This document shows positions 1,515-7,215 of a DNA stretch of 23,364 bases, one piece after another; position 1 is the stretch's first letter; every line of letters begins with the position of its first letter. The notes below the pieces were generated by a model. It made no database searches. It was given only the letters and a program-made list of their open reading frames with translations, and was not told where the DNA came from. Both the position numbers and the translations under genes were made by a program. This DNA is from Candidatus Falkowbacteria bacterium (lineage in GTDB: Bacteria > Patescibacteriota > Patescibacteriia > UBA11705 > JABHMO01), in NCBI GenBank assembly GCA_018703365.1, contig JABJLN010000028.1, forward strand, positions 1-23,364. Reading direction: 5' to 3'.

Positions 1515-2285
1515 ATGGTCTGGACAAGTGCAGATGAAAGCCGAGCACGCAGAGAGGGGTTCAGTGTTGAGCAAGAAAGAAATCGCCAACGGTATATAGA
1601 TCACATTAAGGCGAATAATGCTCTACAAGAGAAAGAAAAAGAAAGAAAAAAAAGAGAAAAAGAAAAAGATGATGATAAGATGAAAGTCCAGTTAGTATTG
1701 ATGTTCTTTGTTGCTCCAGTTGTGATTATTTTTATGATTGTCCTTTTAATCATTCAAATATCTGGCAACGGTCACATCCTCACCGGTGATTCCAAAATTG
1801 CTTCTGAGTATAAGCAAAAGAGAAAGGAAGTAGTAGAACTGCAAGAAAAATTGTCCGAAAAAATAACTAAACTGGGAGTTGCTGAAACAGAATTCAAAGC
1901 AACAATCGCTAGCAATGTTGGGACAATTCAGAGTAACATTAGACGTGGGCAAATCAGGAGCTTCAATGATGCAGTAAGGAATCAAGAAAGCAACACCAAA
2001 CTCAAGATAATTGCCAAAGCACAAGCTTATCTCGAAATCGTGACTGCTGAGAAAAGAGCAGTTGCCAGAGCGGGTGTTGAGCTTCAAGGAATACGGGCTA
2101 ATCTTGACCTTGATCTAACAATGCTAAAAGCGACAGATCAAGAAGAAATGGACGATTTGATTAAAAAGCTTGATAATGTCATCACAAAAATCAAGCCTGT
2201 AGCAGAGGAATACGTAATCAATGATTACAACAGAGGTTCCTCAGATCTCAAAAGCACTTGGAATAAATATTTTATTCAGAAGTAG
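1515..2285 (+). CDS. Membrane-anchored protein with a charged N-terminus, one TM helix, a coiled coil and the conserved C-terminal module. Paralog 1 of the family.
   Basis: Strong SD aggaggaggttATG. Hydrophobic segment LVLMFFVAPVVIIFMIVLLII. The C-terminal ~95 aa (KAQAYLEIV...LDLDLTMLKA...LDNVITKIKPVAEEYVIND) align with the C-termini of the 2400 and 3064 ORFs and with an internal segment of the 4996 ORF. Confidence 0.7.
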   Translation: MVWTSADESRARREGFSVEQERNRQRYIDHIKANNALQEKEKERKKREKEKDDDKMKVQLVLMFFVAPVVIIFMIVLLIIQISGNGHILTGDSKIASEYKQKRKEVVELQEKLSEKITKLGVAETEFKATIASNVGTIQSNIRRGQIRSFNDAVRNQESNTKLKIIAKAQAYLEIVTAEKRAVARAGVELQGIRANLDLDLTMLKATDQEEMDDLIKKLDNVITKIKPVAEEYVINDYNRGSSDLKSTWNKYFIQK

Positions 2286-2290
2286 ACGTG

Positions 2291-2318
2291 GACTCGACAA
2301 TCTTATTGTCGAGTTTTT
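2291..2318 (+). terminator. Rho-independent terminator.
   Basis: ctcgacaat-ctt-attgtcgag is a 9-bp perfect stem, followed by ttttt directly after the stop at 2285. Confidence 0.6.
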
Positions 2319-2332
2319 AAATTCAGAAAACA

Positions 2333-2361
2333 TTGACAAATAACTAGAAATAAGGGAAAAT
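2333..2361 (+). promoter_or_regulatory. Promoter for the 2400 gene (TTGACA, 17 bp, gaaaat). It belongs to a conserved ~55-bp promoter/leader block repeated upstream of the 3064 gene.
   Basis: cattgacaaataactagaaataagggaaaataacctaattgaactttaacaacaa (2330-2384) matches 2992-3046 at about 48/55 positions. Confidence 0.45.
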
Positions 2362-2399
2362 AACCTAATTGAACTTTAACAACAAAACAAGGGGGAAAC

Positions 2400-2948
2400 A
2401 TGCGACATCATACAATATGTTTTTTTACATTAATATTTCTTCTTTGTTTACCCACCTGCAACAAAAGAGATGCAAAAAAGGAAACTAAGGAAAAATATGA
2501 AACTGTAATTTCCTTAATGGAAAAACTACATGAGAAGCATGTCAACATTGACAACACAATAAAAAAGTTCAAAGACAAAAAAACTGAATTCAAAAAAGCC
2601 ATCAAAGGGATTAAATCCAAACGTGGAATTTCGTCTTATGCTGAGGCAGAAAACAACAAGCCTTTAATGATCCATCTAACAGCCTACCAAAAAGTTGAAG
2701 CATATTTAAAAATACTTAAGGAAGAAGATAAAAAAACTGAACAAGCCGCCATTGAATTATATGGTATTCAGATGCAACTTGAGCTTGACATTGAAATGCT
2801 TGAAAGCATAGAAAATGCCGACCTGGAAGAAACACTTAAGCAATTGAATTTAGTGATTGACAAAATCCAGCCTACAGCAGATAACCTGGTATTAAATGAT
2901 GAAAACACACCCAAAACGCCACTAGAAAAACTTTTCAATGAACTTTGA
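2400..2948 (+). CDS. Small secreted lipoprotein-like protein consisting of signal peptide plus coiled coil plus conserved module only. Paralog 2.
   Basis: N-terminus MRHHTICFFTLIFLLCLPTCNKRD has a hydrophobic h-region then Cys followed by N-K, as in the 3064 and 4996 proteins. C-terminus ...YGIQMQLELDIEMLES...LNLVIDKIQPTADNLVLNDENTPKTPLEKLFNEL. SD gggggaaacATG. Confidence 0.7.
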   Translation: MRHHTICFFTLIFLLCLPTCNKRDAKKETKEKYETVISLMEKLHEKHVNIDNTIKKFKDKKTEFKKAIKGIKSKRGISSYAEAENNKPLMIHLTAYQKVEAYLKILKEEDKKTEQAAIELYGIQMQLELDIEMLESIENADLEETLKQLNLVIDKIQPTADNLVLNDENTPKTPLEKLFNEL

Positions 2949-4884: not shown

Positions 4885-4891
4885 ATAACAC

Positions 4892-4919
4892 AAACCAGCA
4901 CCACACCGTGCTGGTTTTA
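4892..4919 (+). terminator. Rho-independent terminator with the same hairpin sequence as 2966-2995.
   Basis: accagcaccacaccgtgctggtttt, followed by an attgacaat promoter. Confidence 0.65.
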
Positions 4920-4921
4920 TT

Positions 4922-4950
4922 ATTGACAATAACGTAAAATATTAGTAAGA
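4922..4950 (+). promoter_or_regulatory. Promoter for the 4996 gene (TTGACA, 17 bp, TAAGAT).
   Basis: ttgacaataacgtaaaatattagtaagat. Leader motif gaacttttacaac. SD aaggagg. Confidence 0.4.
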
Positions 4951-4995
4951 TACAATGATTATGAACTTTTACAACAAAATGACAAGGAGGCCCAA

Positions 4996-7215
4996 ATGTC
5001 CAGATGGCTAAAGACAATTATTACTGTTATTATTATCATTTTTGCTTGTTCTTGTAACAAAGACAAAAAGGCCAAGAAAAATAAGTCAACTCGTCCTGAA
5101 GTCGCTGAAAAAAACTCCCCTAACTCCAATACTGAACCAGCTCCCCTCTCACAAGAAAAAGAAGCTCCACCAAAGTCAAAAAAAGAAATTTCCGAAGAAA
5201 AGCTTGAACATGTAAAGCATCTTCGCAGAAAACTCGAAAGAAAAGAAAGAACCTTGGCTGGCGCACTTATTACATACAAAGACAAAATTTCTATTTTTGT
5301 TCAAGAAATCAAACAAGAACGTAACCGTAGAAACTTGGTTGAATACAATCAGGCAATTTCAAGTAATTCAATCAAGCATAATCTCGAGGCAATTCAAAAA
5401 GCTGAGGCCTACTGGGGAATTACTAATAGGGAAAAAGTAAAAACAAAACTGGCAATTGTCGACGCAGAAGGAACTGAAAAACTACTTGATCTAGACATCA
5501 CCATGTTTAGCACCATGCCTGAAGATGAAATCGACAAACTACTTGATGAACTTGACCTTGTAATTAATAGAATCCAACCGACAGCCAGAGATCTTGTTAT
5601 CACAGACAAGGAAACTGTGCTTACTCCTCTTGATGAGATTTACGAAAAACATATTCGTAAAGAGGAACGTGAGCGAGAAAAAAAGGAAATTGAGCGTAAA
5701 AAAAAAGCTGAAGCTGACCGGTTAGAACGAGAGCGTCAGGTAAAACTAGCAAAAGAAAAAGCGTTAGCAGATACCCAGGCTCGTGCAGCCCTTAATGCTG
5801 AAGCTCGTCGCCAAGCGTTAATTGCTAGGAAACAAGCCGATGAAGAGGCTGCTAGTCAAGAGAGGACTGCCAGACTACAAGCAATCGCCGAGGCTACACG
5901 CCAAGCAAAAATTGCCAGACAGCAAATAACAGCCGAAGAAAACCGCATAGCTGATGAAGTAGTAAAACAAATTGAGTATAAGAAACGCGAAGCTGAAAAT
6001 CGTGCCCGAGAAAAAGCTGCTGAACTTGCTAGTAAGCAAAAAACAGCAGCAGCGATTGCTAACATCAAAATTATCAAACCCACTATCTGGACTTCTATTG
6101 CATATTACAGACCTGGGGGTGATGGTGCAGGTTACATCCGTTGGTCAAATGATAGCAAAGCAGTGGCTATCACCACCTCATCAAAAATGACTATTAAGGG
6201 TGTTCCTCAAAGCACAACTTATGAGCTTGAATCTAATTACGATAACAGCGACTATATAACCGACATGATCTGGTCTCAAAGCAAAACCAAAATTGCAATC
6301 TATTATTCACATTCTTGTGCACTGGAAAGAGGAAACGCCAAGATTGCAATTTACTCGTTAACAAATGATAAAGAGCTCTGGAGGGTGGAAGTCGAATGCT
6401 CCCAAGCCGCTAGTTTCCTTGGTTGGTTTGGTGATTATATTGTCCTTAAAGCATCCGCTGGGTACAGTAGAAATTTTCACATTTACATTATCAATACGAA
6501 AACCAAGAAAACTCAATCATTCACAGCTGACGCGATAACCCCAGTAAACAACTCCTCTGTCTTTGCTGCAAGCTCAAAAAGAATAATCCAAGTCAGTCTT
6601 TCTGACAGAACAATTCTAAAAGAGTTTAAGTTTTGTCGAGATGATGACGAGTCTCTTTATTATTCTTTTTGCCCAGGAGAGATTGACATTCATAAACTCG
6701 CCTACACGAGCGGGCATCTAATTTCATCAGAGTCGCCACAAAACGGAGAAAGTAGCTTCTCCATTTGGGACACAACTTCTGGAAATAAACTCCACTGGTT
6801 TAAAGGTGACGAACCAAGAGATCTTTGGTGGCTAAAAGACGGCAAAACAGCAGTTATTGCTTTGTCGTCTGGCACAATTTTTACAGTAAATGCGAAAAGT
6901 GGATCAATTTACGAGAAAAAGCTCGTAGATGGTGCGATTGGCTTTTATGGCTATAATGTAAACACTTGGTCCACTAAAAAACCTCATCTTGTTATCAATA
7001 AAAATTCTCCTCAGCACGAAACAGCTCTTAATGAAAAAGCAGGTTCGTACAATACTCTCTTTGTCATGGATATTAGGGACCAACAAACAAAGGCCGTCTT
7101 GGTTATGGAGTCAGATATCTCAGATTCTGTCAGACTTTCATGGAGCCCAAACGGCAAGTACCTCGCAATTGGAGACAAGGGACTCCTTCATGTTTTCAAT
7201 GTAAGCAATATTTGA
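4996..7215 (+). CDS. Large lipoprotein-like surface protein with a signal peptide, a Pro/Glu-rich linker, the conserved module in an N-proximal position, a ~140-aa E/R/K/A-rich helical stalk and a C-terminal WD40-like beta-propeller. Paralog 4.
   Basis: N-terminus MSRWLKTIITVIIIIFACSCNKDKK. Module IQKAEAYWGIT...LDLDITMFSTMPEDEIDKLLDELDLVINRIQPTARDLVITDKETVLTPLDEIYEKH. Stalk EEREREKKEIERKKKAEADRLERERQVKLAKEKALADTQARAALNAEARRQALIARKQADEEAASQERTARLQAIAEATRQAKIARQQ. Propeller-like repeats (IWSQSKTKIAIYYS, LSWSPNGKYLAIGDKGLLHVFNV). Confidence 0.75.
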   Translation: MSRWLKTIITVIIIIFACSCNKDKKAKKNKSTRPEVAEKNSPNSNTEPAPLSQEKEAPPKSKKEISEEKLEHVKHLRRKLERKERTLAGALITYKDKISIFVQEIKQERNRRNLVEYNQAISSNSIKHNLEAIQKAEAYWGITNREKVKTKLAIVDAEGTEKLLDLDITMFSTMPEDEIDKLLDELDLVINRIQPTARDLVITDKETVLTPLDEIYEKHIRKEEREREKKEIERKKKAEADRLERERQVKLAKEKALADTQARAALNAEARRQALIARKQADEEAASQERTARLQAIAEATRQAKIARQQITAEENRIADEVVKQIEYKKREAENRAREKAAELASKQKTAAAIANIKIIKPTIWTSIAYYRPGGDGAGYIRWSNDSKAVAITTSSKMTIKGVPQSTTYELESNYDNSDYITDMIWSQSKTKIAIYYSHSCALERGNAKIAIYSLTNDKELWRVEVECSQAASFLGWFGDYIVLKASAGYSRNFHIYIINTKTKKTQSFTADAITPVNNSSVFAASSKRIIQVSLSDRTILKEFKFCRDDDESLYYSFCPGEIDIHKLAYTSGHLISSESPQNGESSFSIWDTTSGNKLHWFKGDEPRDLWWLKDGKTAVIALSSGTIFTVNAKSGSIYEKKLVDGAIGFYGYNVNTWSTKKPHLVINKNSPQHETALNEKAGSYNTLFVMDIRDQQTKAVLVMESDISDSVRLSWSPNGKYLAIGDKGLLHVFNVSNI

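Follow-up and report, generated by a model that had tools for sequence, protein, structure and literature searches.

Paralogous genes for putative surface proteins in Candidatus Falkowbacteria: an unannotated helical module, its variable heads and a predicted membrane partner

Tandem arrays of paralogous surface lipoproteins exist in mycoplasmas and other mollicutes and in spirochaetes, and stalk-and-head surface proteins with coiled-coil or single-alpha-helix spacers constitute a general class. Patescibacteria, or Candidate Phyla Radiation (CPR) bacteria, account for a large share of bacterial diversity, and many of them are thought to be attached to other cells, very few of their surface structures having been identified. 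Pam pili, which are specific to CPR bacteria, were not described until 2026 (bioRxiv 10.64898/2026.03.03.709456). In this work, we analyse a stretch of 23,364 nucleotides from Candidatus Falkowbacteria bacterium (GenBank assembly GCA_018703365.1, contig JABJLN010000028.1; the whole stretch is hereafter called the window), in which a cluster of five genes encodes four paralogues (P1 to P4) built on one unannotated domain of ~160 amino acids, the module, together with a conserved partner membrane protein (MP) predicted to have three transmembrane (TM) helices. As judged from their sequences, the module and MP are two families that lack annotation, and the general design, with a membrane anchor, a helical stalk, a variable head and tandem paralogues, belongs to a well-known type of surface organisation.

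Compared from general knowledge, the lipoprotein arrays of mycoplasmas and spirochaetes resemble this locus in their adjacent paralogues, their signal and cysteine anchors, their own promoters and their combination of conserved N-proximal with variable distal parts. However, they have no sequence relationship with it. Moreover, the part shared here is a defined domain of 160 residues, predicted to have three helices, which can also be located C-terminally or behind bundles of TM helices and is found in other lineages; a conserved gene for an integral-membrane partner is present, and neither phase-variation repeats nor population variation have been seen. P4 resembles the stalk-and-head proteins in that its anchor is followed by a helical rod, then by a long charged stalk, also helical, and at the end by a globular head; in contrast, the prediction for the rod is here an antiparallel bundle formed within one chain and not a parallel coiled coil of several chains, and most members of the family are headless. 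The likeness to WD40 beta-propellers (Pfam clan Beta_propeller) is confined to the heads of P3 and P4, which exceed the Pfam cutoffs for WD40-type families, but these heads are carried by predicted secreted, membrane-tethered CPR proteins and are fused to a new module.

The module and its family

The four consecutive plus-strand open reading frames (ORFs) listed in a first-pass annotation of this DNA, with starts at 1515, 2400, 3064 and 4996, are all present, and their translations and Pfam matches agree with the architectures that it had described (Table 1). The module aligns across the four proteins essentially without gaps over ~160 residues; it is thus common to all of them, although somewhat shorter than the ~170 residues first estimated. 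In this alignment, 25 columns are invariant across the four copies, including the blocks QKAxAY, LxLD and VIxKIxPxA, which recover the motif quoted initially. Pairwise BLASTP comparisons of the modules with composition correction gave 31-39% identity over 127-160 residues and scores of 66-103 bits, against a maximum of 22 bits in 100 residue shuffles per partner. Thus, the similarity between the modules reflects homology and not coiled-coil composition.

The heads behave differently. That of P3 is matched by WD40 (PF00400, 42.4 bits, cutoff 27) and ANAPC4_WD40 (PF12894, 42.9 bits, cutoff 22.9), and that of P4 by ANAPC4_WD40 only marginally (24.6 bits for the same cutoff); the two propellers have only the blade motif in common, with no significant similarity between them (E 0.12). 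Since the propellers are dissimilar while the modules align, it is the module that has been conserved, and the variation lies in the heads. To this extent, and taking into account that WD40, TPR and ankyrin fusions occur family-wide, the proposal of a common module combined with variable domains holds. The architecture of P4 recurs in a 741-aa protein of locus L005 (L-numbers designate loci that hold module genes), and related proteins consisting of a lipobox, the module and a head are also encoded in L004, L043 and L045.

A profile of the four copies, searched with HMMER against 1.84 billion representatives, retrieved 301 matches at E<=1e-3, a number that falls to 119 at E<=1e-10 and to 23 at E<=1e-30. 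The full module is spanned by nearly all of these matches, and motifs outside any heptad pattern (IQ[KR]xxAY, D108 and P136) are conserved in the family. The members with a named source, all of them annotated as 'hypothetical protein', come from Ca. Falkowbacteria (three proteins), Ca. Parcubacteria (two) and one metagenome-assembled genome of Desulfobacterales. As had been suspected, the module falls in no recognised family: no Pfam family covers it in the four window proteins (at E values up to 1, scattered sub-threshold noise only) or in 103 members (E<=1e-3), no relevant match to it was obtained in NCBIfam, PHROGs or PADLOC, and the search of PDB sequence profiles yielded coiled-coil noise only, its best match being 42 residues of the Hook3 coiled coil (E 0.022).

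The family is visible only by exhaustive HMMER search, and word-indexed searches with P2 and with a 47-sequence profile returned almost nothing but the queries themselves. In the species-representative genomes of GTDB, a back-translated peptide pattern gave no confirmed match, a result which, the pattern being narrow, is not evidence of absence; a degenerate 198-nt pattern (L..IQ[KR]..AY-27-D-27-P), also narrow, gave 35 matches in GTDB representatives, all of them due to chance according to hmmsearch. No module was found in a scan of IMG/VR, so that there is no sign of a phage origin. A full-text search of the literature on lipoproteins of Falkowbacteria and Patescibacteria, on WD40 proteins and on CPR coiled-coil proteins gave no description of the module family.

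It could be argued that the four genes are unrelated and have been brought together by a low-complexity coiled-coil artefact, because the sequences are helical and rich in K, E and L and match only coiled-coil noise in the PDB. We consider the likelihood of this to be negligible, as the similarity survives proper alignment: the distance between real and shuffled scores, the 25 invariant columns in register and the 119 full-length matches at E<=1e-10 refute it.

The AlphaFold2 model of the P2 module, obtained with the 47-sequence alignment (predicted local distance difference test, pLDDT, 93; predicted template modelling score, pTM, 0.82), has helices at residues 3-53, 65-114, 121-138 and 153-159, and its fold is an antiparallel hairpin of two ~50-residue helices, ~7 nm long, with a third helix. 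From the helix lengths, rather than from coordinates, it would appear that this third helix packs at the anchor-proximal end and that the C-terminal strand and short helix return toward the tip of the hairpin, in which case whatever comes after the module would exit at its membrane-distal end. Thus, the module is helical, as its initial description as a coiled coil implied, but an intramolecular antiparallel three-helix bundle is predicted by AlphaFold, not a classical parallel coiled coil.

The two antiparallel helices of ~50 residues followed by shorter ones that are predicted here recall ESCRT-III, PspA and Vipp1, whose hairpins were the top Foldseek matches of the model, and the module might then be a divergent membrane-remodelling domain of this type. 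This identity was rejected and is judged very improbable: the Foldseek matches are generic and not significant (E 0.09), hhalign gave a probability of 1% when the module-family alignment was compared with E. coli PspA, neither PspA_IM30 nor Snf7 was matched by Pfam in the window proteins or in the 103 members, and the predicted cellular side is the opposite one.

Anchors, topology and the membrane partner

A hydrophobic anchor precedes the module in 135 of the 141 representatives whose module start is complete, the median gap between them being 23 residues (interquartile range 11-37). This anchor is an N-terminal signal or lipobox only in 71 cases, a set of two to six TM helices in 43, and in the remaining 21 a single TM helix behind an N-terminal region that is long and often acidic; in four representatives a domain (e.g., ankyrin) is placed between anchor and module, as occurs in P3. 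More than 100 residues extend beyond the module in 53 of the 135 anchored representatives, and the recognisable fusion domains of the family are WD40, TPR and ankyrin, all three repeats of the protein-binding type, and, in a single member with the order TM-module-SLT, a lytic transglycosylase. Taking into account the signal peptides, the fusion to this wall enzyme and the K/R-rich N-terminus that precedes the TM helix of P1, the module is probably extracytoplasmic and adjacent to the membrane. The topology predicted for these 135 representatives, in which signal peptides, lipoboxes or outward-facing TM helices precede the module, does not correspond to the cytoplasmic inner-face location of ESCRT-III-type proteins.

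Lipoboxes were evaluated with a criterion of the PROSITE PS51257 type (end of the N-terminal hydrophobic region, with K/R near the N-terminus). Read from the sequence, the signal of P4 (IIFAC/ACSC) fits the pattern [LVI]-[ASTVI]-[GAS]-C, and P4 is likely to be lipidated; for P2 and P3, lipidation is uncertain. The N-terminal anchor attributed to each gene is a TM helix in P1, a canonical lipobox in P4 and, in P2 and P3, a signal/lipobox-like peptide that departs from the canonical pattern. The lipobox-like ends found in relatives are ISC, VGC, SGC and AGC, and also NTC, SDC and TNC.

MP, which is encoded directly after the array, has approximately three predicted TM helices within residues 11-105, followed by a beta-rich domain and a conserved C-terminal helix (residues 266-282); the putative extracytoplasmic part comprises residues 106-245. 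The beta-rich domain contains an invariant pair of cysteines (C122 and C135) and two F-x-x-x-[TD]G...HP repeats. Neither Pfam nor NCBIfam has a match for MP, all its homologues are annotated as 'hypothetical', and its AlphaFold model is poor (pLDDT 60). In L004, L043, L045, L048 (Parcubacteria), L050 and L051, the gene that directly follows module genes on the downstream side encodes a homologue of MP with 33-48% identity, and the adjacency of MP and module is consequently found in seven diverse loci, the window included. Furthermore, in one protein, P0014, an MP-type N-terminal TM region is fused directly to the module (E 2.8e-8). A second MP-like gene in L043 (5004-5827), located after the gene for a 665-aa module protein, is broken into two ORFs that overlap (E 5e-29 and 7e-37 with the MP profile), and is probably a frameshifted or decaying paralogue.

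It has also been considered whether these proteins form a device for envelope maintenance or remodelling like EnvC/PcsB-FtsX, in which the helical hairpin would dock on MP and would position or regulate wall-active or envelope-organising domains. This seems improbable, since the paralogues of the window contain no LytM, CHAP or other hydrolase domain (the SLT domain is in one distant member), MP is not FtsX-like according to Pfam and NCBIfam, no ABC ATPase is encoded in the cluster, and the module is no more similar to the hairpins of EnvC and PcsB than to unrelated ones.

Organisation of the cluster and its interpretation

At least two modules are placed side by side in 10 of the 11 loci examined. 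There are four in the window and in L043, at least four in L004, three in L051, and two each in L005, L045, L048, L007 and L047; L050 has two in one protein, and in L052 there is one, after which the contig comes to its end. The P4-type modules of the Falkowbacteria-like genomes form a group in a rough neighbour-joining tree, in which P2 and P3 are sisters. The Desulfobacterales loci L007 (8001-10654) and L047 (8001-10897) contain a conserved pair of module genes near guaA and efp. In the large partner (674-762 aa), an extremely acidic low-complexity N-terminus of 280-370 residues is followed by one TM helix, then by the module and finally by a C-terminal domain rich in repeats, and the small one (~195 aa) is secreted and consists of the module only. 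In the same tree, the large paralogues of different genomes cluster together, and so do the small ones, which indicates that the pair is old and has been retained. Directly upstream of the Parcubacteria module genes of L048, a 284-aa protein (7109-7963) with a DxTGS motif looks von Willebrand A-like by eye, with no Pfam match on record.

Every intergenic region of the window cluster contains the same cassette, formed by a hairpin rich in GC and its T-run (-13.7 to -15.9 kcal/mol), a perfect TTGACA box, a 17-nt spacer, an A-rich -10 element and a GGAGG-type Shine-Dalgarno (SD) sequence (Table 1), and the four best plus-strand promoter-like matches in a 7.2-kb scan are exactly the four regions upstream of P1 to P4. 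These observations agree with the first-pass annotation, which had taken each gene as a transcription unit with a strong SD and its own terminator. By contrast, the end that it had given to the array, at 7215, has to be moved, since the MP gene at 7313 carries the same terminator, TTGACA and SD cassette and belongs to the unit, all five genes being alike in this respect. The hairpin downstream of P2 has an exact 26-nt repeat downstream of P3 (2962 and 4892), which suggests a joint duplication of genes and their regulatory cassettes. A conserved element CTTTNACAACA follows the -10 box and precedes the SD in P2, P3 and P4 (2374, 3034 and 4966), with a variant at 7295, and appears nowhere else in the window; this element and the duplicated hairpin may represent a shared operator or leader element. 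A scan of the window with Rfam matched no RNA family, and so this conserved motif of the 5'-untranslated regions is not a known riboswitch or leader.

Table 1. Genes, protein regions and putative expression signals of the cluster, in window coordinates.
Feature	Position (nt)	Strand	Residues (aa)	Description
P1 promoter-like site	1437..1465	+		TTGACA, 17 nt, TATATT, TG-extended; score 11/12, top plus-strand match of the region
P1	1515..2285	+	256	N-terminus K/R/E-rich (aa 1-55)
P1 TM helix	1686-1760	+	~58-82	single
P1 module	1785-2282	+	91-256	
Terminator hairpin 3' of P1	2291..2318	+		GACTCGACAA-TCTT-TTGTCGAGT then T5; -13.7 kcal/mol
P2 promoter-like site	2333..2361	+		TTGACA, 17 nt, GAAAAT
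P2	2400..2948	+	182	signal/lipobox-like peptide aa 1-20 (..LPTC/NK)
P2 module	2466-2945	+	23-182	no further domain in P2
Terminator hairpin 3' of P2	2962..2990	+		AAACCAGCACCACACCGTGCTGGTTT then T-run; -15.9 kcal/mol
P3 promoter-like site	2993..3021	+		TTGACA, 17 nt, GAAAAT
P3	3064..4884	+	606	signal/lipobox-like peptide aa 1-21 (..SVTC/SK)
P3 WD40 beta-propeller	3175-4383	+	~38-440	ahead of the module
P3 module	4390-4881	+	443-606	C-terminal
Terminator hairpin 3' of P3	4892..4917	+		exact 26-nt copy of 2962-2987
P4 promoter-like site	4923..4951	+		TTGACA, 17 nt, TAAGAT
P4	4996..7215	+	739	canonical lipobox IFAC/SC, aa 15-20
P4 module	5173-5661	+	60-222	
P4 helical stalk	5662-6090	+	~223-365	E/R/K/A/Q-rich, ~140 aa
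P4 WD40-like propeller	6091-7212	+	~366-739	
Terminator hairpin 3' of P4	7220..7248	+		AAACCCACCTTCGACAAGGTGGGTTT then T-run; -15.7 kcal/mol
MP promoter-like site	7250..7278	+		TTGACA at 7250; -10 element read by eye from alignment
MP	7313..8164	+	283	from GTG 7313; ATG 7316 (282 aa) is the likelier start; directly after the array
Hairpin with T-run	8176..8206			between MP and the convergent hydrogenase large-subunit gene; strand not assigned; -14.8 kcal/mol

The explanation that we favour, although tentatively (with a probability of about 0.45), is that the module is a membrane-proximal stalk and assembly element which, together with MP, builds a platform carrying variable heads. It is based on the conservation of the modules as against the divergence of the heads, the clustering of the genes, the retained paralogue pairs, the adjacency of MP and the fusion found in P0014. 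In this reading, the module would be a rigid rod held on the outside of the cytoplasmic membrane through a lipid-modified cysteine, a signal-anchor helix or a multi-TM bundle, and paralogous modules would assemble side by side, and also with MP, to give a membrane-anchored platform. This platform would hold heads at defined heights, in this case two unrelated WD40 propellers, and elsewhere TPR, ankyrin or lytic transglycosylase domains. P3 would keep its propeller close to the membrane, while that of P4 would be found at the tip of a further ~140-residue helical stalk of ~20 nm, enough to clear a wall or an S-layer; P1 and P2, with only an anchor and the module, would be headless core subunits. 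In this model the modules would hetero-oligomerise and contact MP, and the propellers would bind ligands or a host.

It has to be noted that several observations weigh against the assembly of such a platform. Obligate complexes usually show stoichiometric co-expression, and this is not imposed when each of the five genes has a promoter and a terminator of its own. The AlphaFold monomer of the module is a self-contained bundle that does not require partners. P2 (LPTC) and P3 (SVTC) have no canonical lipobox, with Thr at position -1. The topology of MP was deduced solely from the positive-inside rule and its invariant Cys pair, with a model of such low pLDDT, and MP is absent from both Desulfobacterales loci (L007 and L047) and from L005, which means that the module is able to work without it. 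Moreover, 76 of the 135 anchored representatives end within 25 residues of the module, that is, they are formed by an anchor and a module without a head, and from their predominance it follows that the module must have a function of its own, beyond tethering. Finally, the cluster lies between hypA and [NiFe]-hydrogenase genes in several Falkowbacteria-like loci, and a link with the hydrogenase is conceivable; it was nevertheless considered a case of synteny restricted to a lineage, since that neighbourhood is missing in Parcubacteria, L043, L050 and L051.

Some of these data would also be expected if the array encoded four independent surface (lipo)proteins, in which the module would act as a rigid spacer or fold scaffold and the array would be a repertoire driven by duplication (serving, for example, host range or immune or phage evasion), as in the lipoprotein arrays of mollicutes and spirochaetes, with MP being an unrelated conserved neighbour or a dedicated helper for export or insertion. 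This alternative agrees with the possession by each gene of its own promoter and terminator, with a copy number that goes from 2 to at least 4 between related genomes, with lineage-specific duplications (P2/P3 in the window, L048 and L051), with the duplicated 26-nt terminator, which points to the duplication of a gene together with its regulatory cassette, and with the self-contained monomer of the model. However, the modules are conserved (31-39% identity) and the heads are not, whereas the reverse would be expected of a mere spacer under diversifying pressure; headless proteins made of an anchor and a module dominate the family; the Desulfobacterales pairs are old and have been retained; and the fusion of the MP-type TM region with the module in P0014 argues for a physical link. 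In addition, the population is clonal, with 0-1 differences in 12.9 kb and no sign of rapid variation. Taking all this into account, independent surface proteins are a rather unlikely explanation.

In any case, the cluster is a concrete candidate for a CPR surface system, with a new domain, of high-confidence predicted fold and present in ~300 sequence clusters, a membrane partner that is conserved, and protein-binding heads that can be exchanged. As a minimal outcome, two new domain families and a conserved gene-pair rule would improve the annotation of Falkowbacteria and Parcubacteria genomes. If the model of an assembled platform were true, it would provide a handle on envelope organisation or host contact of CPR cells, of relevance for specialists in CPR and DPANN organisms.

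Taxonomic distribution and neighbouring genes

The origin of the window in Candidatus Falkowbacteria, within Patescibacteria, is borne out by both identity to and synteny with named genomes. The MP gene codes for a protein with 100% identity to HN643_00955 [Candidatus Falkowbacteria bacterium], which occurs on contigs of up to 449 kb, and the DNA of the window is present at 99.99-100% identity in several metagenome assemblies from ENA and JGI, the population being clonal across samples; samples that carry it include ERZ27250149 and ERZ27250163 (ENA) and 3300028173 (JGI). The same gene order, BacA-DUF212-Fpg-iPGM-iPGM-enolase-PGK-HypA followed by the module genes, MP and the [NiFe]-hydrogenase, is found in Ca. 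Falkowbacteria RIFOXYC2_FULL_48_21 (OGF38229.1) and, in part, in the Falkowbacteria assembly GCA_003518055.1.

The family also appears to reach the Archaea. The L050 contig encodes an archaeal elongation factor 1-beta (aEF-1beta; TIGR00489, 76 bits, cutoff 61) as well as, at 4340-6711, a 514-aa lipobox protein with two tandem modules, followed 12 nt later by an MP homologue (E 5.5e-79). This is a single unbinned contig with a single marker, in which chimerism is possible, and the pair of module and MP may reflect a transfer of the two genes together across domains. If the presence of the pair on an archaeal contig is true, it would mean that surface machinery has been exchanged between domains.

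A host-attached or episymbiotic lifestyle had been suggested for the carrier of these genes. The CPR genome makes epibiosis plausible, but the module is also found in Desulfobacterales, which are not known to be episymbionts, and thus the link with episymbiosis is suggestive and not specific. It has further been considered that the module proteins and MP form a dedicated surface apparatus of ultra-small organisms, possibly for attachment, in which the modules would hetero-oligomerise on MP and interchangeable heads would be directed toward a host cell, and that the pair has moved between CPR bacteria and archaea (probably DPANN), a transfer for which the L050 contig, with its aEF-1beta, would be the indication. 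We regard this possibility as a distant one.

Several further genes of the window lie on the minus strand. The [NiFe]-hydrogenase set (8225-14000), with large, small, FAD/NAD and Fe-S subunits, is interrupted by three genes, which encode a pyridoxal phosphate-dependent enzyme (PALP, 9499-10521), a bAvd-like protein and a 157-aa protein with predicted hydrophobic helices (11738-12211). A 184-aa counterpart of the latter, similar-looking by eye, occupies the same position in L004, and the hydrogenase set of L045 is free of the PALP insertion. The bAvd-like gene (11336-11704) is one of two small genes for four-helix bundles of the 23S_rRNA_IVP/bAvd-like type, the other being at 17397-17795, and a similar gene adjoins lexA in the Falkowbacteria locus L043. 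Proteins of the bAvd type accompany diversity-generating retroelements; no match to a reverse transcriptase was found among the ORFs of the window that were scanned. Between dinB (14217-15434) and lexA (16728-17330), in a neighbourhood of the SOS type, there is a 154-aa ORF starting with MCAG (16170-16634), without matches in Pfam or NCBIfam.

Lastly, the gene at 18677-21592 encodes a 971-aa protein that matches the shoulder domain of the Major Vault Protein (PF11978, 98.6 bits) and Vault_3 repeats, and ends in a long charged coiled-coil tail. The local GC content of this gene is 0.48-0.49, versus 0.32-0.37 over most of the window (<=0.42 elsewhere), and the presence of a Major Vault Protein-like gene in a CPR genome, together with its foreign composition, suggests that it was acquired horizontally.

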